NCBI GenBank assembly: GCA_037200965.1
Contig: JBBCGK010000001.1
Coordinates: forward strand, 512,001-576,000
DNA length: 64,000 nucleotides
Direction of reading: 5' to 3'
Source: a bacterium
Lineage (GTDB): Bacteria; Patescibacteriota; Minisyncoccia; Phycocordibacterales; Phycocordibacteraceae
Below the pieces are notes generated by a model. The model was not told the origin of the DNA, did no database searches, and saw only the letters and a program-made list of their open reading frames with translations. Positions 13,450-64,000 of the stretch are shown piece by piece (the first letter of the stretch is position 1; every line of letters starts with the position of its first letter). The translations under genes were made by a program, and so were the position numbers.

Positions 13450-14537
13450 CCTACCATACGTATACACTGATGTCAATCAATGCGTAAGCTACTCTCAACC
13501 TCTAACTGCCCGCATATGATACCACGTATGTATACCCACCTAACGTTCGAGGAACGAGAATGCATTGGTCTTATGCGTGCAGCCTACTTCTGGCCAGTCG
13601 AAATCGCACGCGAGCTCAATCGCGATCCTAAAACCATCAGACGAGAGCTCAGACGCTCGAAACCGTTGTTTGAAGGATACCGACCAAGCCGGGCACACAA
13701 AGATGCACGAAAGAAAAAGAAAATCCCGAGACGCGGGAAGAAGCTCAACTACGCGCCTCTTCAGCGTGTCGTGTATGCAAAGCTCCGGCTTCGCTGGAGC
13801 CCGGAGCAGATTGCGCAGTACTTGAAACAGCACTACGCTACAGATACTCGTATGCAAGTCTCCCACGAATCCATCTACACCTATATCTATGTGCTCCCGC
13901 GCGGGAGCCTCCGCAAGGAGCTTACGTCGTACCTGCGCCAGGGCGCCGAAGGGCGCAGGCGCAGGTATCGGGTGCACGACAGGCGAGGAAAGATACCCAA
14001 TATGGTGAGTATTCACGAGCGCCCCAAAGAAACGGAAGACCGCTCAGTACCTGGACACTGGGAGAGCGACCTCATTATCGGCAAAGGACATCAATCAGCC
14101 ATTGCGACCTTGGTGGAACGCACCACGCGCATGACCATTCTGGTGCCGCTCAGAGAAAAGACCGCTCCTGCGGTGCGCATGGCACTTACGAAAACCGTGA
14201 AGAGCTTGCCCCGCGAAGCCTTCCGATCAATCACCCATGATCGCGGCAGCGAGATGGCTGAGCACGAACTCTTCACCAAAGAGACCAGGGTGCAGGTGTA
14301 TTTCGCTGATCCACAAAGCCCGTGGCAGCGTGGTACAAACGAAAATACCAATGGCCTTATTCGTCAGTATTTCCCCAAGGGAACGGACTTCCGGCGGGTG
14401 CCAACTAAGTATTTGAAGCAAGCGCAGAAGCAGCTCAATACTCGGCCCAGAAAAGCTATCGGCTTCAAAACACCTGAAGAAGCATTTGCGCTATTATTAA
14501 AGAAGCGGGCATTTAGAGTTTGAATTCAAGTAATGGT
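13450..14537 (+). mobile_element. IS30-family element (ends approximate)
   Basis: Transposase above; left end resembles IS30-type IR (ATGTCAATCAATGCG). Right IR appears truncated or abutted by the next IS. No clean TSD found. Confidence 0.4.
13480..14523 (+). CDS. IS30-family transposase
   Basis: HTH (LTFEERECIG) plus DDE core (GHWESDLI...DRGSEM...YFADPQSPWQRGTNENTNGLIRQYFPKGTDF); real start probably at M17 (13528). Confidence 0.85.
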   Translation: MRKLLSTSNCPHMIPRMYTHLTFEERECIGLMRAAYFWPVEIARELNRDPKTIRRELRRSKPLFEGYRPSRAHKDARKKKKIPRRGKKLNYAPLQRVVYAKLRLRWSPEQIAQYLKQHYATDTRMQVSHESIYTYIYVLPRGSLRKELTSYLRQGAEGRRRRYRVHDRRGKIPNMVSIHERPKETEDRSVPGHWESDLIIGKGHQSAIATLVERTTRMTILVPLREKTAPAVRMALTKTVKSLPREAFRSITHDRGSEMAEHELFTKETRVQVYFADPQSPWQRGTNENTNGLIRQYFPKGTDFRRVPTKYLKQAQKQLNTRPRKAIGFKTPEEAFALLLKKRAFRV

Positions 14538-39599: not shown

Positions 39600-41276
39600 A
39601 TGGCCGGACACTTCGATACCGGGGCGGAAGACGCGAAGCTCGCGGAGATACGCGAGCGCGAGGAGGAAGACCTTGCCCAGATACTCTCGGGGAAATACGG
39701 TCTCCGGTATGCCGACCTCTCGGCGCTCCCGATAGACAACGACGCGCTGCGGCTCATCCCGGAAGCCGACGCACGGGGCGCCGAAACGGCAGCCTTCCAG
39801 AAAGCCGGAAGGAAACTTTCGGTCGCGGTCAGGAACCCCCAGAATCCGGCGCTTGCGGGAGTGCTCGAGGAACTCGGAAAGCGCGGGTTTATCGTGGAAA
39901 GGTTTCTGGTCTCTACGAAAAGCCTCGAAAAGGCGCTTTCGCGCTATGCCGAACTCTCGCTTGCGGTCGCGAGCTCCGCAGGCATTTTTGATATCGGAGG
40001 CGACGCGCTCAAAACGCTTTCGGCCGAACTTACGACACTCGGGGCCCTGAAATTCTTCCTCGCGACCGCACTCCTTGAAAAGCGCTCGAGCAGGGTTTCG
40101 AAACTTCTTGAAGGAATGCTTGCCGGGGCATTCGCACTTAAGGCTTCGGATATCCACGTCGAGCCCGAAGACGGAAAGACCAGGCTCAGGCTCCGGCTCG
40201 ATGGCGTCCTCACCGATACGCTCGAATTCGATCCCGAGACGTACCGCTCGCTCGCGTCGCGCGTCAAGCTTCTTGCGGGTCTTAAGTTGAACGTCGACAA
40301 CCGCGCGCAGGACGGGCGCTTTAGCGTCACGATGCAGGGTTCCGAGATCGAGATCCGCGTTTCGCTCATTCCCGGCAACTACGGCGAGTCAATCGTGATG
40401 CGCATTCTCGATCCGGCCTCGATCCAGGCGTCGTCGTTCGACACGCTCGGCATCCATCCGAAGCTTCTCGCGCGCCTTGAGACGGAGATCACGCGCCCGA
40501 ACGGCATGCTCCTTACGACCGGACCGACAGGCTCCGGAAAGACGACGACGCTCTATTCGTGCCTCCGGAAGCTCCATACGCCGGACGTGAAGATCGTCAC
40601 GATCGAGGACCCGATCGAATACCATCTCGAGGGCATCGTGCAGACCCAGACCGAAGGAGATAAGTACACGTTCGCTTCGGGGCTCCGCTCCATTCTCCGC
40701 CAGGACCCGGACATCATCATGGTCGGCGAAATCCGCGACGCGGAAGTCGCGGAAGTCGCCATCCAGGCCGCGCTCACGGGCCACTTCGTCTTCTCCACGC
40801 TCCACACCAACAATGCCGCGGGCACGTTCCCGCGTCTCGTGGATCTTGGCATTGATCCGAAGACGTTCGCCTCGGCTATCACCGTCGCGATGGCGCAGCG
40901 CCTCGTGCGGAAACTCGACCCGCAGCAGAGAAAACAGGCGCCGATCGAAGGCGAACAAAAGAGACTCGTCGAGAAGATACTCTCGACCGTTGAGGACAAG
41001 TCGCTCCTTCCCGCTTCGACAGACACCGCGTGGGTGCCCGATCCCAAGGGACCGGACGAGACCGGCTATCACGGGCGCCTCGGCCTCTACGAAGCGATAT
41101 TCATGGACACGAAGATGGGCGAATTCGTGCGCACCAACCCGAGCGAAAGTGAAATCACCAGGGAGGCCGCGCACCAGGGATATCTCACCATGGCGCAGGA
41201 CGGGATATTGAAAGCCATCGCCGGAGAGACATCGCTTGAAGAGGTGTTCCGCGTCGTTGATCTGCCGAGGGATTAG
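39600..41276 (+). CDS. pilB: GspE/PilB-family type II/IV secretion ATPase
   Basis: N1/N2 domains and Walker A GPTGSGKTTTLYS, Asp box, His box. Confidence 0.85.
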   Translation: MAGHFDTGAEDAKLAEIREREEEDLAQILSGKYGLRYADLSALPIDNDALRLIPEADARGAETAAFQKAGRKLSVAVRNPQNPALAGVLEELGKRGFIVERFLVSTKSLEKALSRYAELSLAVASSAGIFDIGGDALKTLSAELTTLGALKFFLATALLEKRSSRVSKLLEGMLAGAFALKASDIHVEPEDGKTRLRLRLDGVLTDTLEFDPETYRSLASRVKLLAGLKLNVDNRAQDGRFSVTMQGSEIEIRVSLIPGNYGESIVMRILDPASIQASSFDTLGIHPKLLARLETEITRPNGMLLTTGPTGSGKTTTLYSCLRKLHTPDVKIVTIEDPIEYHLEGIVQTQTEGDKYTFASGLRSILRQDPDIIMVGEIRDAEVAEVAIQAALTGHFVFSTLHTNNAAGTFPRLVDLGIDPKTFASAITVAMAQRLVRKLDPQQRKQAPIEGEQKRLVEKILSTVEDKSLLPASTDTAWVPDPKGPDETGYHGRLGLYEAIFMDTKMGEFVRTNPSESEITREAAHQGYLTMAQDGILKAIAGETSLEEVFRVVDLPRD

Positions 41277-48554: not shown

Positions 48555-48806
48555 ATGTATTACTCTGAATCTTTGAGCCGCCTCGGCTTCAAGAAAGTTA
48601 CCGGGCCTGTGCCCTGTCTGCACCGGACGCATCGCGGCGTTTATACCACCGGAGAATATTTTGGCACGGTGTGGACCTGCGCCAGCGACGAAGACTATGC
48701 TCTGTGGATCAAGAAAGGAAATGGTGAGATTGGTCAGTATGGCTTTACGAAGGTCTCCAACCTTTCCGTGGATATAACAGGGCTTGAACCGGTTCCCTTG
48801 GAGTAA
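48555..48806 (+). CDS. hypothetical small protein (83 aa)
   Basis: Low-GC ORF ending inside a strong terminator hairpin. Confidence 0.35.
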   Translation: MYYSESLSRLGFKKVTGPVPCLHRTHRGVYTTGEYFGTVWTCASDEDYALWIKKGNGEIGQYGFTKVSNLSVDITGLEPVPLE

Positions 48807-48822
48807 GGGAGCCGGTTTTTTG
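48789..48822 (+). terminator. rho-independent terminator
   Basis: ccggttccctt-ggagt-aagggagccgg followed by tttttt. Confidence 0.6.
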
Positions 48823-48949
48823 AACGTCTTCCACCAACCTGATTTGAATATTCTTCGTGAAAATGTCAGCTAGCCGTCCGGCACGAAGTTGGAGCCTTAG
48901 CTCAAGAAAAAACGTATATTTATTTTAACCCATAGCGACTCATGAAAGT

Positions 48950-48987
48950 TATGGGCCGACCGTCTCGAGCGCGCAAGGGAAACTGTC
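48950..48987 (-). repeat. intergenic repeat family, partial copy D (inverted orientation)
   Basis: gggccgaccgtctcgagcgcgcaaggg resembles ..tggccgcctcgag / caagcgcg of copies B/C. Confidence 0.35.
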
Positions 48988-50343
48988 TTACTCAACCCTT
49001 ATTAGCGGCGTTGCCCCGAAAGTAACCTTCTGTGGTATTCCGTCCTTTATATCGCTAAATGTAGCTATTTCCCCTCTCGAACTAAATCCGCTCCCTCCTT
49101 TTAATAGGAACTTACTTTCATCTATCGACTGAAGAATCGTTTTATTGCTACCAAATAGTGGAGAGCTTGTATTCATATCAAAAGAAACTAGCGTATCTTT
49201 TATCTTAACTACTACCTTGTCTTCTCCAGAATTCCGATAAATACCTTCGTATTTTATACCATCAACTTTATTTTCCGACGTGTAATCAGAATTATTTTCA
49301 GTAAGACTGTATATTGCTTGAAAAATGCTCTGGGCATATGCCCATACCGGAGCTTTTGAGGTATTTGCGAGCACAACAACACCAAGTTCATTCCCGTAAT
49401 CAATGGCAACCTTTGATACAAAACCTTTGAAGCCTCCGCCATGGCCATATACTTTTTTAGAACTAACGTCATACATTTCAATCCCTAAACAGTATTTATC
49501 CGTACTCCTGGTATAGAAATCAGGCTCTGTAACCATACTTTGTTTAGATTCATTCTTTAAAAGAATCTCTGGTGCCTTAAACGGGAAGGTGGCTATATAT
49601 CTTGCAAGATCAATAGCATTTGAAATAAAGCCAGTCGCTGGCGCATAGGCATTAGCAGAGTAATGCCCGTACTTTTCCCTTTCCTGACCTGGTATTTCTC
49701 GTCCAAGGCCATTAGCAAGACCTCCTATATCTTTTTTATAATCAGTGAAGGTTGAGACCATGTCTAGCCTATCTAAGATATTTGCTTGAATATATTCCTC
49801 ATAAGACAGGCCGCTTACAGCAGCAATAAGTTCGCCTAAAACCGCGAAGCCGTAATTGGAGTATTTGAACTGAGAAGATGGTTTAAAAACCAAAGCTTCG
49901 TCTAAAAGAAGCTGAAGCGTCGTGGGGAATTCACCTGTAAACCAATGGGGTGTAGTACCTTCGCTCCAAATACCAGACGTGTGAGACAGTAATTCGTTAA
50001 TTGTAATATCTTCTAATTTGCCGTTTTCATTCTCTCCTTTGAACCATGGGAGATACTTTGAGACTGAATCTGTGAGTTTGATCTTTTCTTCTTCTACGAG
50101 TTGAAAAACTGCAACCGATGTAAACATCTTTGAAACAGAACCAATGTGATATAGGGTGTTTTCACTAACTTCAATCTTTTTTTCTAGGTCAGCATATCCA
50201 AAACCCTTCTTATACAAAACTTCTCCTTTATAAATAATTGCAATTGAAACACCAAGCACTTTATCGTATTGCAGTCTTAAAGGAAGCCATACCTCCAATA
50301 GATGCGCGACTTCTTTGATTGCTGATTTAATGTCGATCTCCAC
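48988..50343 (-). CDS. serine hydrolase, beta-lactamase/PBP-like (class C/AmpC-type fold)
   Basis: SxxK motif GSVSKMFTSVAV; YxN and KTG-like regions; GC ~38%. Start set at GVG (GTG, ~50343); the track ORF runs to 50406 through repeat copy B. Confidence 0.7.
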   Translation of the reverse strand: MEIDIKSAIKEVAHLLEVWLPLRLQYDKVLGVSIAIIYKGEVLYKKGFGYADLEKKIEVSENTLYHIGSVSKMFTSVAVFQLVEEEKIKLTDSVSKYLPWFKGENENGKLEDITINELLSHTSGIWSEGTTPHWFTGEFPTTLQLLLDEALVFKPSSQFKYSNYGFAVLGELIAAVSGLSYEEYIQANILDRLDMVSTFTDYKKDIGGLANGLGREIPGQEREKYGHYSANAYAPATGFISNAIDLARYIATFPFKAPEILLKNESKQSMVTEPDFYTRSTDKYCLGIEMYDVSSKKVYGHGGGFKGFVSKVAIDYGNELGVVVLANTSKAPVWAYAQSIFQAIYSLTENNSDYTSENKVDGIKYEGIYRNSGEDKVVVKIKDTLVSFDMNTSSPLFGSNKTILQSIDESKFLLKGGSGFSSRGEIATFSDIKDGIPQKVTFGATPLIRVE

Positions 50344-50395
50344 AACTATAATTGTAGTACAAAAAATGAAGTACCACGAGCAGTACGATTGTTCT

Positions 50396-50455
50396 GCGCC
50401 TCTCAAGCGCGAAACCCTGGCACGAGTTGGCTGGCCGCCTCGAGTTCGAACCGTA
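50396..50455 (+). repeat. intergenic repeat family, copy B
   Basis: caagcgcgaaaccctggcacgagttggctggccgcctcgagttcgaacc. Confidence 0.55.
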
Positions 50456-50528
50456 TAGAGACAAGTCCGGGTTAGTACGTTTGATGAGTTTCGAGAATAT
50501 AAAACGATGCGTCTCGTGCGGCGAGGAC

Positions 50529-50903
50529 TTAGTTACCAAATACTACTTCTACATTATTTCCATCTGGATCTAGTACAAATGCTCCGTAGTAGTTTTCGTG
50601 ATATTCAGACCTAATACCTGGTGTTCCGTTATCTCTTCCTCCCGCATCAAGAGCTAATTTATGGAACTCATCCACCTCCTGTCTTGATTGAGCTTTCCAA
50701 GCGATGTGTGCTGGACCACTTATGGGTGCTTCACCGGCAAAGAACGTATTTGTCTTACCATCCTTTCCGAAGCCAATAACACGAACATGATCTTCATATG
50801 TTTGATCAAAGTTCAGTGAATATCCAAGGGGAGAAAGCGCAGCAGAATAGAATCGAGCTGTAGCTGCAATGTCACTTACTTTAAAAGTTATATGGTCGAG
50901 CAT
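50529..50903 (-). CDS. VOC-family protein (glyoxalase/bleomycin-resistance fold)
   Basis: MLDHITFKVSDIAATARFY...HIAW...GAFVLDPDGNNVEVV. Confidence 0.75.
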   Translation of the reverse strand: MLDHITFKVSDIAATARFYSAALSPLGYSLNFDQTYEDHVRVIGFGKDGKTNTFFAGEAPISGPAHIAWKAQSRQEVDEFHKLALDAGGRDNGTPGIRSEYHENYYGAFVLDPDGNNVEVVFGN

Positions 50904-50915
50904 ATATGAATTATA

Positions 50916-51566
50916 TCAGCGCGGTTCTTCTTCGGTTGCTGTAGGCTCATCTTGTACAGACGCCTGTTTAGCTGCAGGAAGTGCTCGGGCTCGACGGAAT
51001 TTATAAAATCCCTCCAGTGCTGAAATGACTGCATCGATTACTTCGTTTGCATCCTCTTTGGTTACTGGCGCCGCTAAATCATCTGGGTGCATAACGTCAT
51101 TACGGCCGAGTCGAGCAACTGTGCTATCTGCAAATTGATCTGCATCGATCGCATCTCCATTCTTTAGCAACTCCAATCTCTTTTTTAGGCTCTTTCCCGC
51201 ATCTGAAGGTGACTTTAAGAATGCATTTACAAGTGCATCAAGCATAATTCCCGCTAAGGCAACTGAACTTCTGTAATTGCCATTATTGAACTCGACATAC
51301 ATTTCACCGCAGATCTCGCGGTAATTCTCTGGGAGCCAAGATGGTACTTGATGAGTTGAAATTACTGGATAAACGAATTTTACTCTGTTTTTAAATCCTG
51401 GCTCATGTTCGACGACAAAAGCATGCCCTCCCGGACATTCAACTACGCAGACGGTTTGTCCTTCACGGAACTGGTGTTGCCAAACTTCTGCAAAATAGGA
51501 GTGCAGCCCACACCTAGGACAATTGCCACTCCATCTATTTCCGTCTGTCCATGTCATTTGAATCAT
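50916..51566 (-). CDS. hypothetical protein with N-terminal zinc ribbon and DUF4145-like C-terminus
   Basis: CPRCG...C..C then helical C-terminal region with RNDVMHPD motif. Confidence 0.4.
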   Translation of the reverse strand: MIQMTWTDGNRWSGNCPRCGLHSYFAEVWQHQFREGQTVCVVECPGGHAFVVEHEPGFKNRVKFVYPVISTHQVPSWLPENYREICGEMYVEFNNGNYRSSVALAGIMLDALVNAFLKSPSDAGKSLKKRLELLKNGDAIDADQFADSTVARLGRNDVMHPDDLAAPVTKEDANEVIDAVISALEGFYKFRRARALPAAKQASVQDEPTATEEEPR

Positions 51567-51604
51567 ATTTTCATTATATCGCTTCTTGCGATTTTGCTAA
51601 GCGA

Positions 51605-51660
51605 CGCCTCCCAAGCGCGAAACCCTAGCACGAGTTGGGTGGCCGTCTCAGACTCGAATA
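51605..51660 (+). repeat. intergenic repeat family, copy C
   Basis: ccaagcgcgaaaccctagcacgagttgggtggccgtctcagactcgaata, ~88% identical to copy B. Confidence 0.55.
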
Positions 51661-51931
51661 CTAAGCTTGTTATCGAATCCCCTTCACCGCCACCCCCGCC
51701 CCCCGGAGCGCATCCGTTATGGCCGCCTCTCGCAGATGCATTTCGGACTTAATCACAGGGGATACTTTAAGCGACACGGTCTCGTCCTCATAAGACACCT
51801 GGCTCGCCTTTATCGTAAGGCCAAGGACGCTGCTTATGGTCTCCGCGCACACCCTCCGCCTCTCGGACTGCCGGAGGCCCGGTACCGGGTGCTTGAGCAA
51901 TATGTCCGAGAGGGATTTCATGGAGAGTCAG

Positions 51932-53247: not shown

Positions 53248-54597
53248 TTATACCAACATGGTACGGATGTCCTGGATCTCCTTCGCGAGGTCGCTGTTGT
53301 CGATGATTTCACGCTTCACCTTCTCGCAGGAGTGGATGACGGTGGTATGGTCGCGCCCCCCGAGCTTCGAGCCGATGGTCGGATACGAGATGCTGAAGTC
53401 CTCGCGAAGGAGGTACATGATCACCTGCCGCGGCCGCACCACTTCCCTCCTGCGGGTCTTCTCATAGATGCTTTCCTCGCCGATGCCGTAGAATTCGGCG
53501 ACCTTCGAGACGATATGCTTCACCGAGACCGTCTTTGACGGTCTCGCGAAGGACCGGAGCGACTGCCGTATCTCGGCGATGTCCGGCGGCACCCCTTTCA
53601 CCTGCGTGTGGCAGACGACGCTGTTCACGACTCCTTCGAGCTCCCTGATAGACCCCGGGACCGAGAGCGCGATATACTCCGCGACCTCGTCCGCGAGCGT
53701 AACCCCGTGGGACGCGGCCTTGCGCCGGATGATCGCAACCCTCGACTCGGTGTCGGGTTCCCCGATATCGACCGCCATGCCGCTTGAGAAGCGGCTCCTG
53801 AGCCGCTCCGCGATGTCGGGGATAGCCGCGGGAGCGCGGTCCGAGGAGAAGATGATCTGCTTGTTGTTGTCGTGGAGGGTATTGAAGAGGTGGAAGAGTT
53901 CCTCCTGATATTTTTCCTTCTTCGCAAGGAACTGTACGTCGTCCATGATGAGGAGATCGTACTGGCGGTACTTGTCCTTGAAACGGTTCGGATTGCCCGC
54001 CTGGAGCGAGTCGCTGTATTCGACGCAGAACTTCTCCGAAGTGAGATAGAAGACCTTGCGGGTCGGATAGAGCTTCTTGAATTGGTTGCCGATCGACTGG
54101 ATGAGGTGGGTCTTCCCCCGCCCGGTGTCGCCATAGATGAAGAGCGGGTTGTACATGATCCCCGGGCGCTGTATCACCGCCTGCGCGGCGCTATAGGCAA
54201 GCTCGTTGAAGGAGCCGATGACGAACGAATCGAAGGTGTAGCGGGGGTTCAGGTTGTCGCTTTTGTTGATATAGAAGTCGTCAAGCGGCATCGAGACGGT
54301 CTGGCGGTCGGTTTTCTGCTCCCTGGCGGGCTTCCGGCGCTCGTCTTTCACGATCGCGTACTCGATATTGCGGAACTCGTAGGAGACGCCCCGGATGATC
54401 TTGAGGAGAAGGGCGTTGAAATGCTTCAGATACCAGTCGCGGAAGAAGGGGCTCGGGACGCCTACCTGCACGATCCCGTCCTCTATCTTCACGATATGGC
54501 TCGCGCCGAACCAGGTCTTGAAATTAGCCGGGGAAACGGAGAGCTCTACCTGCGTCAGCACGTGTTCCCAGAGCTCTCTCGGATCGGTACGGTTCAT
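53248..54597 (-). CDS. dnaA: chromosomal replication initiator DnaA
   Basis: AAA+ motif IYGDTGRGKTHL...; C-terminal DNA-binding domain. Confidence 0.9.
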   Translation of the reverse strand: MNRTDPRELWEHVLTQVELSVSPANFKTWFGASHIVKIEDGIVQVGVPSPFFRDWYLKHFNALLLKIIRGVSYEFRNIEYAIVKDERRKPAREQKTDRQTVSMPLDDFYINKSDNLNPRYTFDSFVIGSFNELAYSAAQAVIQRPGIMYNPLFIYGDTGRGKTHLIQSIGNQFKKLYPTRKVFYLTSEKFCVEYSDSLQAGNPNRFKDKYRQYDLLIMDDVQFLAKKEKYQEELFHLFNTLHDNNKQIIFSSDRAPAAIPDIAERLRSRFSSGMAVDIGEPDTESRVAIIRRKAASHGVTLADEVAEYIALSVPGSIRELEGVVNSVVCHTQVKGVPPDIAEIRQSLRSFARPSKTVSVKHIVSKVAEFYGIGEESIYEKTRRREVVRPRQVIMYLLREDFSISYPTIGSKLGGRDHTTVIHSCEKVKREIIDNSDLAKEIQDIRTMLV

Positions 54598-54706
54598 CGT
54601 CGCGTCATTATACGCGTCCGGTCCGGAATGGGTAGCGGGCGGTTTCGTTGCTTCTCCGGGGAGAAGCTGTTAATATCCTGTGTATAGTCGAATTCATACC
54701 TGACGC

Positions 54707-54865
54707 ATGTCCACCAAGCGAACCTATCAGCCGAAAAAGCGAAAGCGCGCCCGCGCGCACGGATACCGCGCCCGCGCGAAGACCCCGGGCGGCCGCCGCG
54801 TCCTCAAGCGCCGCATGCAGAAGGGCCGCAAGAAGCTCACGGTCTCGAAGCCGCGCCTCGTCTAG
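54707..54865 (+). CDS. rpmH: 50S ribosomal protein L34 (not in ORF track)
   Basis: [52 protein letters not shown]. Confidence 0.85.
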
Positions 54866-55226: not shown

Positions 55227-55652
55227 ATGGCAACAATAAATCCCTGGATTAACTTCAACGGCAATGCCGAAGAAGCCTTTATGTTTTACAAATCAGTATT
55301 TGGCGGTGAGTTTACAAAGATTATCCGTTTGAAAGATCTTGCGAGTTCCGAGTTTCCCGTAGCGGACGCGGATGCGGAGAAAATCATGCTCATCGCCCTG
55401 CCGATTGGCAAGAACAGCGTATTGATGGCAAATGACGTACCCTCATTTATGGGTAGGGTGAGTGAAAATGAAAACCGAAGTAAAATCTCGGTCAGTACAG
55501 AGAGCAAGGAGGAAGCGGAGGCTATATTTGAAGGCCTCTCGGCAGGAGGGCAAGTCGAAGCGCCGCTCGGTGAGAGTGCGTGGGGAACCTATTTTGGCAT
55601 GTTCAGGGACAAATATGGCATCGAGTGGATAGTGGAGTTTCGATTTGAATAA
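55227..55652 (+). CDS. VOC-family protein (PhnB/glyoxalase-like)
   Basis: MATINPWINFNGNAEEAFMFYKSVFGGEF...GMFRDKYGIEWIV; lower GC. Confidence 0.65.
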   Translation: MATINPWINFNGNAEEAFMFYKSVFGGEFTKIIRLKDLASSEFPVADADAEKIMLIALPIGKNSVLMANDVPSFMGRVSENENRSKISVSTESKEEAEAIFEGLSAGGQVEAPLGESAWGTYFGMFRDKYGIEWIVEFRFE

Positions 55653-55697
55653 GTTTTTAATCAAAAGGCGCACAATCTTAACCCCGCTTAGACTCTC

Positions 55698-56630
55698 ATG
55701 CTTCCCAAGCTTACAGACGACCAAATTAAAAGTGTTTTTACTAACGTTGGCCTCGGCACTCCGAACACCATCAAAAAACTCAGTGTCGGCTTCTCAAACG
55801 ATGTGTATTCCGTAGACGATAAATACATTTTTAAGGCCATTAGGAACGAAGAAGACACGTCGTATCTAAAGAAGGAAATCCACCTTTGCAATTTGTTTAA
55901 GGAGAGGCTGCCCGCACCAGTAGTCGTGCATTCCGATACCGCTAAAGCCGCCCTTGATAGGGCGTATGTCATATACGAGAAGATTCAAGGAGATAACCTT
56001 TATATGCGGTGGCACGAATATTCCACCGAGGAGCGAAAGGCGATAGTCGAACAGATTTGCTCCTATCTTAAAGTCATTAACACTGAGCCTTTTAAAGATT
56101 TTACTGACGCTTTCAATATTGATACCAAAACTTCATGGCACGAACGGATAGCTACGAAAATACAAGAACATAAACTGAAAGCCCTTTCTGTTAATGCTAT
56201 TTCGTCTGAACAGGCGGAGCGAGTAGATGAGTATGTGAGGACTAGTTTAGTAGCACTCGATGAGTCCGTTATGGCACTGACTTACTTTGATGTTCACTTC
56301 GATAATTTTATCGTTCGAGACAAAAAGATAGTCGGAATGCTCGATTTTGAGAGGACGGATTTTTACTCGATAGATTTCGTATTGGATATCGTGCGACGCA
56401 TGGTCAACGAGCCGACTAAATACGCTTCCGAAGAAGCCGAACCGCTCATCAAGGCAGAGGATTATGCGAGTTTGATGGAACAGTACAAAGAGTATTATCC
56501 TCAACTCTTTGACTTTGAAAATCTTGAAGCGCGCCTCAAGCTATACTCAATAGACCACGACCTAGACCAACTCCATACGTGGCCTGAATCAGCGAGCCTT
56601 AAAGAGAGCTTGGCGAGGAATACTCAGTAG
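55698..56630 (+). CDS. phosphotransferase-enzyme-family (APH/choline-kinase-like) protein
   Basis: Kinase-like catalytic loop VHFDNFIV and DFE motif GMLDFERT; GC ~42%. Confidence 0.6.
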   Translation: MLPKLTDDQIKSVFTNVGLGTPNTIKKLSVGFSNDVYSVDDKYIFKAIRNEEDTSYLKKEIHLCNLFKERLPAPVVVHSDTAKAALDRAYVIYEKIQGDNLYMRWHEYSTEERKAIVEQICSYLKVINTEPFKDFTDAFNIDTKTSWHERIATKIQEHKLKALSVNAISSEQAERVDEYVRTSLVALDESVMALTYFDVHFDNFIVRDKKIVGMLDFERTDFYSIDFVLDIVRRMVNEPTKYASEEAEPLIKAEDYASLMEQYKEYYPQLFDFENLEARLKLYSIDHDLDQLHTWPESASLKESLARNTQ

Positions 56631-56773: not shown

Positions 56774-57514
56774 ATGATCTCAAGCCTTTTCCACACGTTC
56801 TTCTACGACCCGATCTACAACCTCCTGGTATTTCTCGTATCCGTCGTCCCGCACGGGGACGTCGGTCTCGCGGTCATCGGCGTTACCATACTCGTCCGAC
56901 TCGTACTCCTTCCCTTCTCGCTTTCCGCCTCGAGAACCCAGCGCGCGATGAAGGTGCTTGAGCCGAAACTCAAGGAAATCAAGGAACAATACAAGGACGA
57001 CAAGCAGGAGCAGGCCGCGAAGACGATGGAACTTTATAAGACCGAGCGGGTAAACCCGTTCGCGAGCATCGTGACACTCCTTATACAAATGCCGGTCCTC
57101 TTCGCGCTCTATTTCGTTTTCCTCCACGAGCCGTTTCCGCAGCTAAATGCGCACCTTCTCTATACGGCGACTCCCGTTCCGGAAACGATCTCGCTTCTTT
57201 TTCTTGGGATCGTAAGCGTCCTGGGGCATAGCATCGTGCTCGCGGTTATCGCCGCCGCCGCCCAGTACTATCAGGTCATCCTTGCGGTGCCGAAGCCCAC
57301 TCCCAAGATAAAGGGTGAAGTTCTCAGTACCCAGGAGGAATTCACCCGGATGATGGGCCTCTATATGCGCGTCATCATTCCCGTGCTCATCGGCGTCGTG
57401 GCATACACGACCTCAGGCGCAGTCGCCCTCTATTTCATCACCGGCGCGGTCGTAAGTATTCTCCAGGAGCTGTATATAAAGCGCCAGTTCGACGCGAAGC
57501 CGGTCGCCCTATAA
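56774..57514 (+). CDS. yidC: membrane protein insertase YidC (short form)
   Basis: LLPFSLSASRTQRAMKVLEPKLKEIKEQYKDDKQEQAAKTMELYKTERVNPFAS. Confidence 0.85.
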   Translation: MISSLFHTFFYDPIYNLLVFLVSVVPHGDVGLAVIGVTILVRLVLLPFSLSASRTQRAMKVLEPKLKEIKEQYKDDKQEQAAKTMELYKTERVNPFASIVTLLIQMPVLFALYFVFLHEPFPQLNAHLLYTATPVPETISLLFLGIVSVLGHSIVLAVIAAAAQYYQVILAVPKPTPKIKGEVLSTQEEFTRMMGLYMRVIIPVLIGVVAYTTSGAVALYFITGAVVSILQELYIKRQFDAKPVAL

Positions 57515-58774
57515 ATCGTACGCCCAGAGCGAGCCGTCGCGTTTGTTGAGGAACACGAGCACGTCCTTCCGGGGATCGACCGTAAGCGCGGTCGCGTCAA
57601 GCGGCCCGTCCGTCGCTCCCGAGAAATCGAGCGCCAGCTCGGCAAAGCGCCCGCCGACATCTATCTTCCAAATCCGGTCCGTGAACGAAACGGCCCCCTG
57701 ATACCAGTCGTCAGGATAGGTCGCGGTCGCAAGAGATCCCGGAACCGGCACGCCGCAATAGACGGCGCTTTCGTCAGACGTCCACGCGCATTTGTCCGCG
57801 ATCGTCGCGACCGGAAGCGCTATCAGCTCCCGGGTCCTGATGTTCAGAAGCGAAGTCTTCAGATTGCCCTGCTCGGTATAGCTTAAGAGCGCCCAGGTTC
57901 CCAAAGGACTCGGAAGCGCCACGAGTCCCGGCACGGGGCCGAACAGCCGGTTCATGGCGCCCGCGGTGTCGATGAGAAAGGCGTAGCCGCCCGAAAGTCC
58001 GGTCGCTTTCGTATACGCGACGAACTGGCCGCTTCCCGCAGGGCGTGCCGAAAGGCTTCCGAGGGGGGAAGAAAATGCGGTGCGCGAAGCGCTGCCGTCG
58101 GCCTTGGAGACGGTGCCGATGGAGCCGTTGCCGCCGCTTGAAAGCGAAAATACCGAAGATGAGCCGACGGTCGCGATACCCGCGATGTTTACGGGAAGGA
58201 AAAAGCCCTCCGTACCGTCAGCCGGGAGCGCGTAGGTGTCGATCTCCGGGTTTTCCGCGGTGCCGCCGGCGTAGCGAAGATATGCGAGCGACCCGTCGGG
58301 GAGCCACGTCGCTTCCTGAGTTCCCGGGATCGTTTTGTTGACCAGGCGCTTCGCCGCGCGCGCATGGAAGAGATAGGAGAAAAGATTTCCGCTCTCGCGA
58401 AGCGCGTAGCGGACTTCGGTATCGGGGACCGGGAGGCTCACGGTGCTTGTGCCGCTCGCTTCGCCCGCGGGAAGCGGCGCCGTACTGCTTGAAATAAACG
58501 CGACGGCGCCCGGCACCACCGGGCCTTTCGTTATCTCAATGAGCCGTTGCGTAACTACGGTTCCGGCGGCCGCGCCGCCCGTGTCCGGGTCTACGGTATC
58601 GCTTTCGCCTCCCGCAGCGTCCCCTGCGGGGTTTCCGAACGGGTTCGTGCCGGTATCGACGACGAGGGTCGGCGTTCCGGCGAAGATAAAGAAATATGCG
58701 GCGGCGCCGAGGCCTCCAAGGACGATGAGTATCGCGAGGATGATAAGTACGCGCCGCATAATCAGGAATCGCAC
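57509..58774 (-). CDS. membrane-anchored secreted hypothetical protein (421 aa, beta-rich)
   Basis: N-terminal TM; last gene of the minus-strand pilus/T4SS-like operon; overlaps the upstream gene by 13 nt. Confidence 0.5.
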   Translation of the reverse strand: MRFLIMRRVLIILAILIVLGGLGAAAYFFIFAGTPTLVVDTGTNPFGNPAGDAAGGESDTVDPDTGGAAAGTVVTQRLIEITKGPVVPGAVAFISSSTAPLPAGEASGTSTVSLPVPDTEVRYALRESGNLFSYLFHARAAKRLVNKTIPGTQEATWLPDGSLAYLRYAGGTAENPEIDTYALPADGTEGFFLPVNIAGIATVGSSSVFSLSSGGNGSIGTVSKADGSASRTAFSSPLGSLSARPAGSGQFVAYTKATGLSGGYAFLIDTAGAMNRLFGPVPGLVALPSPLGTWALLSYTEQGNLKTSLLNIRTRELIALPVATIADKCAWTSDESAVYCGVPVPGSLATATYPDDWYQGAVSFTDRIWKIDVGGRFAELALDFSGATDGPLDATALTVDPRKDVLVFLNKRDGSLWAYDL

Positions 58775-60039
58775 ACCTTGCCTGGTGCCGCGGACGCAGG
58801 GACGATCTCATCGACATCCGCGCTCGTGAAATCGCATTTGAGGTCGTACACGTTCGCCTTGTATCCAGGATAAGCGGAAACATTCTTAGCCGCGGACTGC
58901 TGCGCCTCCTGAAGACGTTTCGCGCAAAAGGATTTTGTGTCAACCGGGGTACGAGGAGATTCCTCGGTGGTGTCGGGTGTTTTTATCCAGTTGGCGCTCG
59001 CACCGAGGTGGGTTCCGCCGCCGTACACCCAGCAGCTCATTAAGGCCCTCGACTTATCGTTTGAAACGATTGCCTCATCGTCATACCAGTGCCACCAGGT
59101 GAAAACGTAGTATCCTGCCGCGCCGATTTTGACCGATACGGCGTTCGACGCCGACGAACTTACGCCGGAAGCATCTCGCGCTTTGACGGTAAAGGAATGG
59201 TCCGAACCGGCCGCGAGTTTGGAGACGGTGGCGGTCGTGCCTGCCACGGATTGCGCGAGGGTGCCATTGTCATACACGTCGTATGCAGCAGGAGCCGTGC
59301 CGCTCGGGGGGGCTTTCCAGGTAAGGGTCACGCTGGTAAGAGTCTGTGCCGTGACGGTGAGACTTTGCGGTGCCGTATCTCCCACCGTTCCGGTCCCGTC
59401 GCCGTCCCCTCCCGTATTGCCTCCTCCAACCTGGGTACCGTCCGGACTTCCCGTGCCTCCTCCTGTGTTTGAAGAATTGGTCGGCTGCAACTCATACGTA
59501 TTTATTTTAAGGCTCAGAATATCCGGATTTATAATGCTAAATACGAGAAACGGAGCAAGGACGAGCACGAGCCCGATGATCGCTCCGCCGATCTGATCCC
59601 GGCCTTCCGAGTGCGCCGTAATACTGTCGCCGCTCATCACCTTAAAACCGCCAAGCGTGATCATGAGGATGGCGAGAACCGCTGCGGCGCCGATGCAGAA
59701 CTTGTAGAGGCCGTTGAAGAATTCGGCAAGGTTATTCGGGTTTACGTCCGTAAGCCCCGGAACCGCCGCAAGCGGTACGAAAGAGCTTCCTTTTGCTGAA
59801 GATGGGGGTGTAGGTGTTGGGGAGGGAGCCGGAGTCTGTGTCGTTACCGGAACAGTACATTGATACGAATCAGCCGTTTTCCCGGGAAGACCCTTGATGA
59901 GAGCGCAGTTCTCCTCCTTGCCGCCGCATGCGCTGACGCAGGACTTGAGATCCGGATAGGTCGCATAGCTTTCCGCAGCGGCTACGTTCGGGGAAAAGAA
60001 TGCTATGACAATAAAAGCGAGGATAGGAAGATATTTCAT
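58762..60039 (-). CDS. multi-domain secreted protein: signal peptide + Cys-rich module + VirB2/TrbC-like pilin hydrophobic hairpin + Gly-rich linker + FN3 domain + Cys/Trp-rich C-terminal domain
   Basis: NLAEFFNGLYKFCIGAAAVLAILMITLGGFKVMSGDS...GGAIIGLVLVLAPFLVFSII is a two-helix pilin-like hairpin. LTVTAQTLTSVTLTWKAPPSG...YDVYDNG...HSFTVKARD is FN3-like. Confidence 0.45.
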   Translation of the reverse strand: MKYLPILAFIVIAFFSPNVAAAESYATYPDLKSCVSACGGKEENCALIKGLPGKTADSYQCTVPVTTQTPAPSPTPTPPSSAKGSSFVPLAAVPGLTDVNPNNLAEFFNGLYKFCIGAAAVLAILMITLGGFKVMSGDSITAHSEGRDQIGGAIIGLVLVLAPFLVFSIINPDILSLKINTYELQPTNSSNTGGGTGSPDGTQVGGGNTGGDGDGTGTVGDTAPQSLTVTAQTLTSVTLTWKAPPSGTAPAAYDVYDNGTLAQSVAGTTATVSKLAAGSDHSFTVKARDASGVSSSASNAVSVKIGAAGYYVFTWWHWYDDEAIVSNDKSRALMSCWVYGGGTHLGASANWIKTPDTTEESPRTPVDTKSFCAKRLQEAQQSAAKNVSAYPGYKANVYDLKCDFTSADVDEIVPASAAPGKVCDS

Positions 60040-61025
60040 AGTCCAAATATACCAGTACCCCCGCTCGTCTCCCCGAAGCTTATGCGCAGCGCACGCGTCG
60101 CCGTTTCAAACAATTGAGGGAGGGTCGCCGTGACGGAAACCGCCGCACTCCCCTTCCCGCCCGTGGAGCGCAGCGTGATAGCGGGGTTGCTGCCGCTTGC
60201 GCCGCTGTTGACGGTCCAGACGATCGCGGGCGTTCGTGCGAATCCATACGGCACCGCGACGAACGTCGCTTCGGCGCCCGGCATGGCGAACTCGTCGCCA
60301 AGCGCGCGGTCGTAGCGGATTCCAAGGAGCGGATCGCTCTCATACACCCGTACGGAAGGGTCTGATGGAGAGATTCGAAGAACGCTATCAGCCACCAATG
60401 ATTGGTCGGGACTCAAGACTGTTACCTCGATCGTTGCGTCGCGGTAGCGGACGGGTGCCGTCATAGAAACAACTGAGCGGCCGATGCCCGAAAGATCCGC
60501 GAGTTCCTGCCCGTTCAGTTTCCATTTATACACGAGCGTACCATCGGTGAATCTTTTCCCGCCGGTTGCTCGCAAGTCGGGAAGGGCGACGAGGCGTACT
60601 TGCCCTTGCGACGGAATACCGAAGCCTCCCGGGTAGAACGGATGGCTTGTTGCCGCAGGCTCTGCAATAAGCGCGACTTCGGCAGGACGCACGGTCTGGC
60701 TTGCGCTGTATGCTTGGCCGCCGATGGTTGCGATCGCTTTCACCACTGTCGCGCTTCCGGCCGCGCCAAGCGTGACCCGCGCCCGCCCGTTCGTCATTGG
60801 AATTTCTTTCCCGTCGGCAAGAATCGTTATGATTGCGGCCGCCAAGTCAATGGAGTTGCTCGACAGGCTTGCCGTTATCGTGTCATAGGGCCGTGGGTAG
60901 TCTGGTGAAATGGCGAGCGTAAGCGCCGGCCCCCCCGTTCCAAAGACGCCCTGCGCGAATACTGTCGCGGGCAACAGAATACCAAGGAGTGCATAAGCGA
61001 AGAAACGCATGTCTTCAGTATACAA
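60036..61025 (-). CDS. secreted hypothetical protein (329 aa, signal peptide)
   Basis: MRFFAYALLGILLPATVFAQG signal peptide; 4-nt overlap with downstream gene. Confidence 0.5.
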   Translation of the reverse strand: MYTEDMRFFAYALLGILLPATVFAQGVFGTGGPALTLAISPDYPRPYDTITASLSSNSIDLAAAIITILADGKEIPMTNGRARVTLGAAGSATVVKAIATIGGQAYSASQTVRPAEVALIAEPAATSHPFYPGGFGIPSQGQVRLVALPDLRATGGKRFTDGTLVYKWKLNGQELADLSGIGRSVVSMTAPVRYRDATIEVTVLSPDQSLVADSVLRISPSDPSVRVYESDPLLGIRYDRALGDEFAMPGAEATFVAVPYGFARTPAIVWTVNSGASGSNPAITLRSTGGKGSAAVSVTATLPQLFETATRALRISFGETSGGTGIFGL

Positions 61026-61039
61026 GCTTTTCGGTATCT

Positions 61040-61531
61040 TCAGGCAGCCTCCTGTGCACTTTCCGTGGTCTCCTCGTTATCGTTTGCCGCCGCCGCTCGC
61101 ATCTCGGCAGCTCCTCGAGCGTATGCATCCGCGCGCCGCCGCTCGGCTTCCTTCGCCTTTATCTCCGCCGCATGGGCCGCATTATATGCGGCGTCCTCAG
61201 TTCGGCTGATGATGATAGTGCTTATAACCCCATAGGTAACGCCGGGCAAGGAATTAAGCAAAGGAGTCGCTTCAAGCACGGCGCTTCCGAGCAGGTTGAG
61301 CAGCTTCGCCGACTTGCCTTTCGTCATCTTTATGCCAAGCAGCGGAAACCACACCAGATAGAAAACGATACCGGCAAAGATCGCCACAAACCAGCTTCCG
61401 ATAAACGCGACGGCATTCCCCACGACCGGAATTGAGTTAAGAAAAAACAGAAAGAATTGAATCAGATCGAAAAGCGCCGCAAGCCCGCACATAAGCGCCG
61501 CCACGAACACTCCGACACGTTTTTGCTTCAT
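61040..61531 (-). CDS. small polytopic membrane protein (VirB3-like candidate)
   Basis: 3-4 TM helices, Ala/Glu-rich tail; directly downstream of VirB4 with a 4-nt overlap. Confidence 0.45.
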   Translation of the reverse strand: MKQKRVGVFVAALMCGLAALFDLIQFFLFFLNSIPVVGNAVAFIGSWFVAIFAGIVFYLVWFPLLGIKMTKGKSAKLLNLLGSAVLEATPLLNSLPGVTYGVISTIIISRTEDAAYNAAHAAEIKAKEAERRRADAYARGAAEMRAAAANDNEETTESAQEAA

Positions 61532-63348
61532 GACGCCCTCCCTCCCTCAAGCCGGTCCTTCTCGCGCTTGATCGAAAGGAGCTGCGAGGGGTCGGACGTG
61601 ATGATCTGATCTTCGGTATACGACGCGACGACCTTTATCGCGACGTGCTTGAGGCCCGCGAAGAAAAGCCCCTCCCCCACTCCCGACTCGAGAAGCAGGT
61701 ATTTCTCCTCGTCCGTGAGGTTGAAGGTTTCCTTGAGAACGTCGATCGAAGTCGGCGATTGCTTGAGGAGCAGCTGGATCGAGGAGTTGTTGAGGATAGG
61801 GCGGCCGTAGGGGGAACGGAGGAAGTCTTCCACGTCCTGCGTGATGGTCGCGACGCCGAGATAGTATTTGCGTCCGCGCTTGGCGAGGGAGTAGAGGAAG
61901 GAGGCCGTATCCTCGGACTTCATCATCCACCACGCCTCGTCGATCACGAGGAGGCGCTTCCGGAGTTCGTGCCGGATCGCGTTCCAGATGAAGTGCGTGA
62001 TGATATACATCGCGATCGGCTTGAGTTCGTCCTCCATGTCGCGGACCGAGAACACGATGAATTGCTTCTTGATGTCGACGTTCGTCGGCTGGTTGAGAAA
62101 CCCCGCCCACGTGCCGTGCGTGTACTTCGAAAGCCGCTGCACGAGGGATTCGCTGCCCTCAAGGCCCGACAGTACCTGCTCGAAGTCGGTGAGAAGCGGC
62201 GGCTCCTGGCCGGTGAAGTCGCTGTCGCCCGTGATGTCTTTGAGGGCGTACGTCTCCCCGATCGCCCGGTCGATAAGCGCGTCTTCCTCGGGCGTGAGGC
62301 CGCCGAGCATGATGCGGAAGAGACCGACGAGCGTAATCGTGTTCGAACGCAGGATATCCCGCGGGTTTTCGTCCTCCTTTACCGGCGGCAGGTCGAACGG
62401 ATTGATGTGATGCTCGCTCGAGAGCGAGATGTTGAACGACCTGCCGTCCGTCGCTTCCGCGAGCTGCTCGTATTCCCGCTCCGGGTCGATCACGATCACG
62501 TCGGTGTCGAACATGAGGGAACGAAGTATCTCGAGCTTGGTGGCATAGGATTTCCCCGAGCCCGACTTCGCGAAGACGACCGAGTTGTAATTCTCAAGCG
62601 AGAAACGGTCGAAAAGGATGAGCGAGGAATTGTGGCGGTTGATGCCGAAGAGTATGCCCCGGTCGCTCGTAAGGTCGAAGGAGACGAACGGGAAAAAACT
62701 CGAAAGCGGCGGCGTATCGAGCTTGGTATTGACGAGCAGCTCGTCGGTGCCAAGGGGAAGCGCGCTGCGGAACCCCTGCTCCTGCTGGAAGAGCGCGGGC
62801 TTGGTGTAGACCAATACCGAATTGAGCCGTCCGGTCACCTCGTTTTCGGTCTTATCAAGCTCGTCCTTCGAGTCGGCGTAGAGCGTCATGTAGAGGCCGA
62901 CTTCGAACAGCTTCTCCTCCGCCCGCTGCAGGCTGTCGCGGAGAGTCTCAAGGTTCTGGTATGACGTATCGAGGAGCGGATCGCGCACCAGTCCCTTGTC
63001 TTCGCGCTCCGATATCTGGCTTTGTATTTCCGCCACCTTTTTCTGGAACTGCCTGAGCGCCGCTTCGGTCTCGACCGGGTGTATGTAGAGCGCGATGTCG
63101 AAAGGTTTGTCGAGGTTCACGATCGGCGAAAGCCAGGAATCCGAAAGCGTGCTCGGATAGCTTATGGTATAGAACGATCGCGCGAATTTCTCGCCAAGCT
63201 CGAGTTCCCGCGCGCTGATCTTAAGCGCCGCGGGCGCGATGGTGTCGACGAGATCGAGCGCGCCCTTCCGGTAAATGTCTTTCGGCAGCACCGGGATCAC
63301 CTCCGGGGTCTGCTGCTGTTTTTTGTTTAAGAAGTCGAGAAGTGCCAT
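61528..63348 (-). CDS. virB4: VirB4/TrbE/TraC-family type IV secretion ATPase, C-terminal 606-aa portion
   Basis: Walker A VVFAKSGSGKSYATKLEI, Walker B VIDEAWWMM, conjugative-ATPase C-terminal motifs. Confidence 0.8.
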   Translation of the reverse strand: MALLDFLNKKQQQTPEVIPVLPKDIYRKGALDLVDTIAPAALKISARELELGEKFARSFYTISYPSTLSDSWLSPIVNLDKPFDIALYIHPVETEAALRQFQKKVAEIQSQISEREDKGLVRDPLLDTSYQNLETLRDSLQRAEEKLFEVGLYMTLYADSKDELDKTENEVTGRLNSVLVYTKPALFQQEQGFRSALPLGTDELLVNTKLDTPPLSSFFPFVSFDLTSDRGILFGINRHNSSLILFDRFSLENYNSVVFAKSGSGKSYATKLEILRSLMFDTDVIVIDPEREYEQLAEATDGRSFNISLSSEHHINPFDLPPVKEDENPRDILRSNTITLVGLFRIMLGGLTPEEDALIDRAIGETYALKDITGDSDFTGQEPPLLTDFEQVLSGLEGSESLVQRLSKYTHGTWAGFLNQPTNVDIKKQFIVFSVRDMEDELKPIAMYIITHFIWNAIRHELRKRLLVIDEAWWMMKSEDTASFLYSLAKRGRKYYLGVATITQDVEDFLRSPYGRPILNNSSIQLLLKQSPTSIDVLKETFNLTDEEKYLLLESGVGEGLFFAGLKHVAIKVVASYTEDQIITSDPSQLLSIKREKDRLEGGRAS

Positions 63349-63366
63349 GCGTAGTCGTACTATAGC

Positions 63367-64000
63367 CTATGCTTCGAGCCTGATCGGGTTTTCGATCTCG
63401 CCGGGATTGAAGGAACGGTACAGGAGTTCGATCACCTCCTCGGTCCCGAGCGGTATCGCCCGGAGCCCGGTCGCCGAAAGTCCGCTTGAAACGAGCGCCA
63501 TGCGCTGCTCGAGCTGCGCGCGGTCTTCTTCGAACGCTCCCGGCGCCTTCGTTGCGGCGGACGAGGCTTTTGTTCCGCCGAAGATGCCGCCGATCGCGCT
63601 TGCGACCTGTACCCCGGCCCCGGAAGCGTACGGCACGACGATATAGAAGGTTTTCGTCATTATGTTCGCGCGCTCCGTGAAATCGCGTACGAACTCTACG
63701 TACTCGCGAAGCTGTAGCCGCATGAGGTCGGTTTTCTGGGAAGACTCTTTTGTCTCAAGAAGAGCGAGGTACGGGCGGATGTCCATCTTGCGCGAATGGA
63801 CGACGATCTCGACCGAGAAATCGAGCGTGTTGAGAAAATTCTGGAAACCCTCGAGAATGGCGCGCTGCTCGTCGTTTGACTTGAGCGCGAAGTTAAGTGA
63901 CGAGCACATAAGGACTCCCCGGTACCCTCCGTCTTTGAGGGTTATGATGCCGTTCCGGATTTCCTTGACCGGAACGAACTGCTGCGTCGCCTGGCTTTTC
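63367..64000 (-). pseudogene. virB4: VirB4 N-terminal portion (continues past window edge), same frame as 61528..63348 but separated from it by a single in-frame TAG
   Basis: Translation upstream of the track M (63909) stays open to the window edge (...KEIRNGIITLKDGGYRGVLMCSSLNFALKSNDEQRAILEGFQNFLN...), typical of a VirB4 N-terminus. TAG at 63367-63369 read directly. Confidence 0.55.

Follow-up and report, generated by a model that had tools for sequence, protein, structure and literature searches.

Patescibacteria possess a type IV secretion system (T4SS) of their own, whose VirB4 proteins form a monophyletic clade related to the monoderm MPF-FATA class (Quinonero-Coronel 2025, PMC12102498) and which a 2025 review treated as a new T4SS branch (PMC12857230). 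The first of these studies showed that TrsD is the most abundant associated component, that VirB3 is of the PrgI type, that VirB2-like pilins are encoded close to virB4 in over 1,100 assemblies and relaxases in almost none, and that most of the VirD4 homologs lie far from virB4; it also placed the system next to dnaA, dnaN, rnpA, rpmH, and ksgA in Paceibacteria and Microgenomatia (PMC12102498). The one species in which epibiotic growth is known to require this T4SS, along with its pilins, is Southlakia epibionticum (Wang 2023, PMC10633639). Here, we describe a locus that is almost certainly this published, non-conjugative T4SS, located in a 64,000-nt stretch of DNA of a Kaiserbacteria-like Patescibacteriota bacterium (contig JBBCGK010000001.1, positions 512,001 to 576,000; hereafter the window, meaning the whole stretch), in which the VirB2-like pilin is a 425-aa modular protein. 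The T4SS derives from monoderm (MPF-FATA) conjugation machinery and has lost the relaxase and the coupling protein. Genes beyond the window were read on contig JBBCBH010010897.1 (GCA_037975565.1; 960 kb), which carries exactly the same proteins, and about 74 kb of this 960-kb genome was inspected.

The 425-aa protein was dissected by hydropathy (used for transmembrane (TM) segments and signal-peptide-like N-termini; the cleavage site was judged by eye), by profile searches, and by an AlphaFold2 (AF2) model with a mean predicted local distance difference test (pLDDT) score of 72.6. The gene and its parts are as follows:

58762-60039, minus strand: modular VirB2-like pilin, 425 aa, the sole pilin-domain open reading frame (ORF) in the locus
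59974-60039, minus strand: residues 1-22, signal peptide (MKYLPILAFIVIAFFSPNVAAA) recognized by hydropathy, with a predicted helix at 4-20
59788-59973, minus strand: residues 23-84, module with four Cys (about 30-61) and a Pro/Thr-rich linker
59500-59787, minus strand: residues 85-180, VirB2/T4SS_pilin two-helix hydrophobic hairpin
59380-59499, minus strand: residues 181-220, Gly/Thr/Ser-rich flexible linker (pLDDT < 50 for 188-217)
59128-59379, minus strand: residues 221-304, fibronectin type III (FN3) domain of the bacterial glycoside-hydrolase (chitinase) type (pLDDT ~90)
58765-59127, minus strand: residues 305-425, C-terminal alpha/beta domain with four Cys and six Trp, belonging to no known family

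This layout (Cys module, pilin hairpin, Gly-rich linker, FN3, and Cys/Trp-rich domain) had been proposed in an earlier note on the same DNA, and both the profiles and the AF2 model agree with it. The hairpin has an FVPL..PGL motif, two helices (104-136 and 140-170), and an IINP end, and is modeled with a pLDDT of 87-93. It matches PF18895 (T4SS_pilin) with E = 1e-4 and 22.8 bits over profile positions 5-67 of 71, a pilin-profile match of the kind whose absence, according to the earlier note, would speak against a pilin; the match also falls within the limits used for pilins in the published survey, i.e., i-Evalue < 0.001 and > 50% profile coverage (PMC12102498). The match to TrbC/VirB2 (PF04956) is weaker (E = 0.07), and the pilin-family profile found no PDB sequence at E <= 10. 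The FN3 domain scores 34.6 bits against PF00041 (cut-off 25), and the fold test likewise returned FN3. In the C-terminal domain, strands at 309-320, 335-342, and 397-406 and a helix at 369-389 are predicted (pLDDT 70-82), and in the N-terminal part the 4-Cys module (31-61) has a pLDDT of 73-79, and the Pro/Thr linker (64-84) one below 50. The mature pilin would thus have about 400 aa and three extra folded modules besides the hairpin, and the cleaved signal peptide together with two TM helices places both appendages outside the cell. The C-terminal cassette consists of an FN3 spacer, apparently derived from bacterial glycoside hydrolases, and a novel 4-Cys/Trp domain; no catalytic or carbohydrate-binding module was recognized in the 425-aa protein.

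Searches with the hairpin alone returned 12,281 cluster representatives at E <= 1e-3, of which the nearest 150 were analyzed. The hairpin is the best-conserved part of these proteins (50-62% identity), and 138 of the 150 representatives match PF18895 (57 match TrbC/VirB2), so that, judging from the profiles, the pilin homology is firm at the family level. After the hairpin, the proteins continue for a median of 119.5 aa, and for at least 100 aa in 116/150 representatives. The number of Cys residues in these extensions is even in 98% of the representatives and at least four in 91%, which fits disulfide-bonded, extracytoplasmic domains, as does the topology with a signal peptide and two TM segments. 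Cys-containing N-terminal modules comparable to the one described here were present in only 4/50 homologs.

A second sample was based on VirB4, for which at least 550 relatives were found in species-representative genomes. The best 80 of them (71-84% identity; labeled Kaiserbacteria, Paceibacterota, or Parcubacteria) were examined for synteny, and the order PrgI-TrsD-VirB4-(g8)-g9-pilin-g11-yidC-dnaA, where g8, g9, and g11 denote the genes of the 163-, 329-, and 421-aa proteins, is kept. A pilin occupies the syntenic position in 68 species-level genomes, and its length there ranges from 140 to 580 aa. Plain pilins (140-180 aa, fewer than 50 residues after the hairpin) fill this slot in 12/68 species, which indicates that the extended pilin is the positional ortholog of an ordinary one, and in 43/68 species at least 100 residues follow the hairpin. 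Exactly one pilin-domain ORF within about 20 kb was found in 66 of the 67 loci having any, and one was found in the 74 kb inspected here; among the 13 loci with no pilin match, 11 are interrupted by contig ends.

The extensions themselves are highly diverse. The extensions of at least 80 aa, 47 in number and each from a different species, fall into 41 blastp similarity groups, although the VirB4 proteins of these species are 71-84% identical to the query VirB4. An FN3 domain is rare, with 4/150 representatives and 0/68 syntenic orthologs having one. The C-terminal domain of the window's pilin was found by local phmmer only in P0001, P0002, P0003, and P0222, i.e., in three other proteins, and is missing from all 68 syntenic orthologs. 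As judged from these comparisons, a hairpin with a variable external cassette is common in the Kaiserbacteria-like clade, and the particular cassette of the window is rare. Therefore, the fusion of a pilin to extra domains, pointed out in the earlier note as unusual, is real; as regards the clade, extended pilins are the rule and the FN3 domain alone is rare.

Some architectures in this dataset call for caution. A 715-aa protein, P0041, in which the upstream 330-aa protein seemed at first sight to be naturally fused to the pilin, was not used; at the junction, the sequence departs from the end conserved in the 330-aa family and continues directly into the Met and signal peptide with which the pilin itself starts, and the fusion is probably a frameshift artefact. 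Among other relatives (P0178, P0307, P0291, and P0048), there are ORFs with four, three, or two tandem hairpins and a hairpin joined to a VirB1-like SLT lytic transglycosylase. The end of P0048 is translated Illumina adapter, and some of the unusual pilin architectures may therefore be assembly artefacts.

The reading favored here, to which we assign a probability of about 0.6, is that the locus encodes a host-contact pilus with variable binding domains exposed on its subunits. Its steps are drawn from homologies. The split VirB4 (a TrsD-like protein and a 606-aa ATPase) would dock on PrgI/VirB3 and the VirB6-like polytopic membrane protein; Sec would insert the 425-aa protein as a hairpin of two helices whose ends both lie outside the cell; and VirB4 would pull the hairpin out of the membrane and polymerize it into a VirB2-type filament or conduit. 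The external C-terminus of each subunit would present a flexible linker, the FN3 spacer, and the disulfide-bonded terminal domain, and with such a module on every subunit the filament would be coated with many copies of it. The terminal module, variable between species, would most likely recognize the surface of the cell on which the bacterium lives, and the role of the machine would be host contact and/or the transfer of proteins or nutrients, not conjugation. The decorated-filament step taken separately has, in our estimate, slightly less than an even chance of being correct. It is also conceivable, more tentatively still, that the pilin gene serves as a modular display scaffold, in which the hairpin would polymerize and an exchangeable disulfide-bonded cassette would set host specificity.

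Whether so large an appendage is compatible with a filament may be approached through the geometry of known pili. In F-type and VirB2-type pili, the termini of the pilin point to the outside and the lumen is lined by the loop between the helices, and the F-pilus has five subunits per ~12 Å rise and a radius of ~44 Å. From these values, the area per subunit can be estimated at ~660 Å² at the filament wall and at > 1,500 Å² at a radius of 100 Å, which suggests that one FN3-sized module per subunit could fit on long linkers.

Several points weigh against the host-contact pilus. The PF18895 score of 22.8 bits lies below the Pfam gathering cut-off of 26.6, and we know of no pilus of this system observed in any Patescibacterium. 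The polymerization of a pilin with a 250-aa appendage is a step proposed from homology, and the binding function of the terminal domain is suggested by its topology, Cys pattern, position, and variability. In the fold searches no solved structure was matched by either the terminal domain or the hairpin, because FN3 matches filled both searches. Equivalents of VirB6 and VirB8 are not securely identified. Finally, short major pilins, a type IV coupling protein (T4CP), or a relaxase could lie in the part of the genome beyond the ~74 kb (of 960 kb) examined.

The strongest competing explanation, although in our opinion an unlikely one, is that the hairpin is a membrane anchor or a short element of the T4SS channel and that the 425-aa protein is a non-polymerizing surface adhesin or receptor. 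The size of the appendages (250 aa C-terminal and 60 aa N-terminal, versus canonical pilins of 70-120 aa) fits this explanation, as does the fact that monoderm T4SSs are normally devoid of pili (PMC12102498), and no filament is known to have been observed. Against it speak the plain short pilins that fill the slot in 12/68 species and the hairpin, which has pilin-family motifs and is the best-conserved part of the protein. Moreover, on long flexible linkers the domains could lie outside a filament, and the F-pilus geometry estimate allows one FN3-sized domain per subunit at a larger radius.

Less probable is a minor or tip pilin with a VirB5-like adhesin role in a filament built from short major pilins, whose genes would lie elsewhere in the genome. 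Saccharibacteria do have 2-11 divergent pilin genes in arrays (PMC12102498), and the 74 kb inspected make up a small part of a 960-kb genome. Nevertheless, such arrays occur mainly in Microgenomatia and Saccharimonadia and lie inside the T4SS cluster (PMC12102498), and 66 of the 67 related loci with a pilin-domain ORF have exactly one.

The locus is chromosomal, comprises 11 genes in about 12 kb, and is bounded by ksgA on one side and by yidC-rnpA-rpmH-dnaA-dnaN on the other. The window covers its last five and a half genes. Apart from the pilin, the following features were distinguished:

63367-64000, minus strand: TrsD-like protein, 219 aa, homologous to the VirB4 N-terminal domain; start codon 26 nt beyond the window end
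61528-63348, minus strand: VirB4-family ATPase, 606 aa, complete, MPF-FATA / CD1110 type
61040-61531, minus strand: 163-aa (g8) polytopic membrane protein (3-4 TM segments; tail charged and Ala/Glu-rich)
60036-61025, minus strand: 329-aa (g9) secreted protein with a signal-peptide-like N-terminus (324 aa from the ATG at 61010)
57509-58774, minus strand: 421-aa (g11) membrane-anchored beta-propeller protein, last gene of the locus (416 aa from the start at 58759)
56774-57514, plus strand: yidC, converging on the minus-strand operon
L001 8899-9333 (outside the window): PrgI/VirB3 (PF12666, 43 bits versus a cut-off of 27)
outside the window, between the PrgI/VirB3 and 667-aa genes: 192-aa protein
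L001 6242-8245 (outside the window): 667-aa VirB6-like candidate (signal peptide, six TM segments, coiled-coil tail)
outside the window, beyond the 667-aa gene: 533-aa secreted protein
outside the window, next to ksgA: 340-aa anchored protein with a TSP3-type repeat

Five minus-strand ORFs had been listed in the earlier note, and all of them were recovered with the coordinates given there; the membrane or secretion assignments of the 163-, 329-, 425-, and 421-aa proteins agree with hydropathy. The gene overlaps reported there are 4 nt long and were seen for the VirB4/163-aa and 329-aa/425-aa pairs, and the 425-aa and 421-aa genes either overlap by 13 nt or are separated by a 2-nt gap, depending on the start of the latter. 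Such few-base gaps and 4-nt overlaps fit a single transcription unit converging on yidC. In turn, the statement that virB4 runs off the window was wrong, since this gene is complete and the TAG at 63367-63369 is the stop codon of a separate ORF upstream of it.

The VirB4 protein scores 385.5 bits against NF045971 (CD1110 family; cut-off 325), matches PF19044 (P-loop_TraG) with E = 3.5e-26, and is 82-95% identical to its orthologs. The TrsD-like ORF matches N-terminal model positions only of NF045975 (E = 1e-11) and NF045971 (E = 2e-7), as well as NF041427 TrsD (E = 5e-4), and its precomputed annotation is PF26593, TraC-like; it is a separate ORF in all relatives compared (64-84% identity). In the window, both ORFs are in the same frame, separated by the TAG and 18 nt. 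In three orthologous loci the spacers measure 17, 1, and 4 nt and put the two ORFs in different frames, so the shared frame is a coincidence, and the possibility that the in-frame TAG marks a pseudogene, readthrough, or recoding was ruled out on the same grounds. On the evidence of these reading frames, VirB4 is split into a TrsD-like gene and an ATPase gene and not cut by the window edge.

Outward from the TrsD-like gene, the order is PrgI/VirB3, the 192-aa, 667-aa, 533-aa, and 340-aa proteins, ksgA, and an intein-containing uvrD, and in the three relatives used for the comparison of orthologous loci the 11 genes follow one another in the same way from ksgA to yidC/dnaA. Thus, the description of a minimal, non-conjugative T4SS-like pilus of bacteria from the candidate phyla radiation (CPR) was right as to the non-conjugative CPR type and not as to "minimal", six more genes lying just outside the window. 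The 667-aa protein has a lone weak match (NF045889 Mbov_0396, E = 0.054). The deposited gene call of 582 aa probably lacks part of the N-terminus; at 667 aa, the protein starts with a signal peptide, and its alignment to the 671-aa ortholog of L008 begins at residue 1. The UvrD-family helicase (997 aa; L001 1-2203, upstream of ksgA) appears to be split by an intein, as indicated by a weak Intein_splicing match and a homing-endonuclease-like insert.

Of the remaining window proteins, those of 163 and 329 aa gave no family match in the profile searches. The position of the former is kept in three relatives, but its sequence changes quickly (identities of 58%, 36%, and none detectable), and the latter, devoid of Cys and of known domains, is 44-61% identical to its orthologs and is encoded directly before the pilin, an adjacency kept across 80 loci. 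For the 421-aa protein, AF2 predicted a TM helix (2-26), a disordered linker (28-69), and a propeller (73-415; pLDDT 80.6, predicted template modeling score (pTM) 0.73), and generic propeller matches (tricorn, TolB, and WD40) were obtained at E ~1e-8. Its family is well conserved and has at least 534 homologs in Kaiserbacteria/Paceibacterota, none with a Pfam domain; a role as an envelope scaffold is our guess.

No relaxase or T4CP was found in the window's large ORFs (screened by a Pfam scan) or in the 10 kb upstream, and the same scope yielded no integrase; no peptidoglycan hydrolase was recognized within the locus. The earlier note had likewise seen neither VirD4 nor a relaxase and had named an adjacent full conjugative module as the finding that would make this an ordinary conjugative T4SS; the upstream stretch, now inspected, contains neither a relaxase nor a T4CP. 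The GC content of the locus (0.56-0.63) equals that of the genome, which argues against a recently acquired island.

This lack of a relaxase and a T4CP is shared with DNA-uptake machines such as Helicobacter ComB or archaeal Ced, which also work without them, and a function of this type was considered too. The C-terminus of VirB4 gave a weak local match to CedB (36.6 bits), and ABY1-class T4SS loci adjoin comF, recG, and radA (PMC12102498). Yet the CedB match comprises ~70 residues of a shared ATPase motif (cut-off 700 bits), further Ced or ComB components were not found, and no competence genes flank the locus in its own genome and three relatives. Moreover, competence of Southlakia needs type IV pili and ComEC, and deletion of comEC is viable, the T4SS being essential (PMC12857230), all of which makes DNA uptake improbable. 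As for an ordinary conjugative T4SS of a plasmid or an integrative and conjugative element (ICE), VirB4, TrsD, and PrgI are indeed homologous to Gram-positive plasmid/ICE conjugation proteins, but the ksgA and yidC-rnpA-rpmH-dnaA-dnaN flanks, whose order dozens of species share, a GC content equal to that of the genome, and no relaxase, T4CP, or integrase within 10 kb mean that this explanation is effectively refuted by context.

Some observations concern the neighborhood of the locus. The T4SS operon is transcribed toward the presumed origin (dnaA-rpmH, 53248-54865), and the cumulative GC-skew minimum falls at ~50-58 kb. If oriC lies in the dnaA-rpmH region, the rightward replication fork meets the operon head-on. 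The orientation of the operon is kept in relatives, and the published gene-dosage idea for origin proximity is silent on this point. Two low-GC islets are present. The first (48800-51800; GC 0.40-0.47 versus ~0.58) contains genes for a beta-lactamase-fold protein (48988-50406, minus strand), a VOC/glyoxalase protein (50529-50903, minus strand; missing from the gene calls listed for the contig), and a DUF4145 protein (50916-51566, minus strand); it is missing in syntenic relatives, where the penicillin-binding protein (PBP) gene directly follows dnaN, and it is probably a recent insertion. The second (55227-56630; GC 0.43-0.46), between rnpA and yidC, encodes a glyoxalase/3-dmu-9_3-mt family protein and an APH-family phosphotransferase, and in the relatives L009 and L010 yidC abuts rnpA without this islet. 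Farther away, there is an IS30-like transposase with HTH_38 and rve domains (13480-14523, plus strand), whose identical protein also occurs on a short contig of a different sequencing run, and a PilB/GspE-type ATPase with T2SSE and MshEN domains (39600-41276, plus strand), which means that a type IV pilus system, separate from the T4SS, is encoded 16 kb away.

The T4SS itself is already known, being one more member of the system described in 2023-2025; its pilin architecture was not found described in the open-access literature searched. The 2025 survey makes no mention of FN3, fibronectin, or fused pilins (PMC12102498), and a search for literature on PF18895 or VirB2 in Paceibacteria/Parcubacteria gave nothing relevant among open-access papers, which is no proof of absence. 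What the present comparison adds is that the only VirB2-like pilin encoded by the locus in this Paceibacteria clade usually bears an extracellular Cys-paired C-terminal domain, nearly unalignable between species whose VirB4 is 71-84% identical to that of the query. Conserved machinery, a conserved polymerization module, and a hypervariable outward tip together form the pattern of receptor-binding proteins. If these domains bind host surfaces, they would be candidate determinants of host range, and cassettes expressed and labeled could then serve as probes for the hosts of uncultivated CPR bacteria, a long-standing open problem. The modular display scaffold, if confirmed, would also be the first natural domain-decorated VirB2 pilus, and a VirB2 filament with a 25-kDa appendage per subunit would be relevant to T4SS structural biology and to the design of pilus display.

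Compared with known systems, the locus combines familiar parts in an altered arrangement. The FN3 domain resembles the spacers of chitinases and cellulases (e.g., Bacillus circulans ChiA1, PDB 1k85), but here the protein that carries it is a pilin. With the VirB2/TraA/TrbC pilins (PF04956; F, T, and RP4 pili) the 425-aa protein shares a signal peptide, the hairpin, and a gene beside virB4, whereas canonical mature pilins of this group have ~70-120 aa and no folded appendage, in contrast to ~400 aa in a monoderm organism here. The Trs system of pGO1/pSK41 and the Prg system of pCF10 (MPF-FATA) have the same split into TrsD and a TrsE-like VirB4, PrgI/TrsC (VirB3), a polytopic VirB6-like protein (a candidate here), and a monoderm envelope without VirB7/9/10; they differ in being plasmid-borne, in having a relaxase and a T4CP, in lacking a VirB2 pilin, and in using separate adhesins such as PrgB. 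The closest likeness is to the Patescibacteria T4SS (PMC12102498), including SEML1_0006-0019 of Southlakia (PMC10633639), with which the locus shares the FATA-type VirB4, the separate TrsD-like gene, PrgI/VirB3, a VirB2-like pilin by virB4, no relaxase or T4CP nearby, and the position beside dnaA/dnaN/rnpA/rpmH/ksgA. Unlike the published systems, with their arrays of 2-11 short divergent pilins, it has one pilin gene, whose product bears large N- and C-terminal extracellular modules, and the variation that is elsewhere achieved by the number of paralogs is located here in the C-terminal cassette of a single gene.

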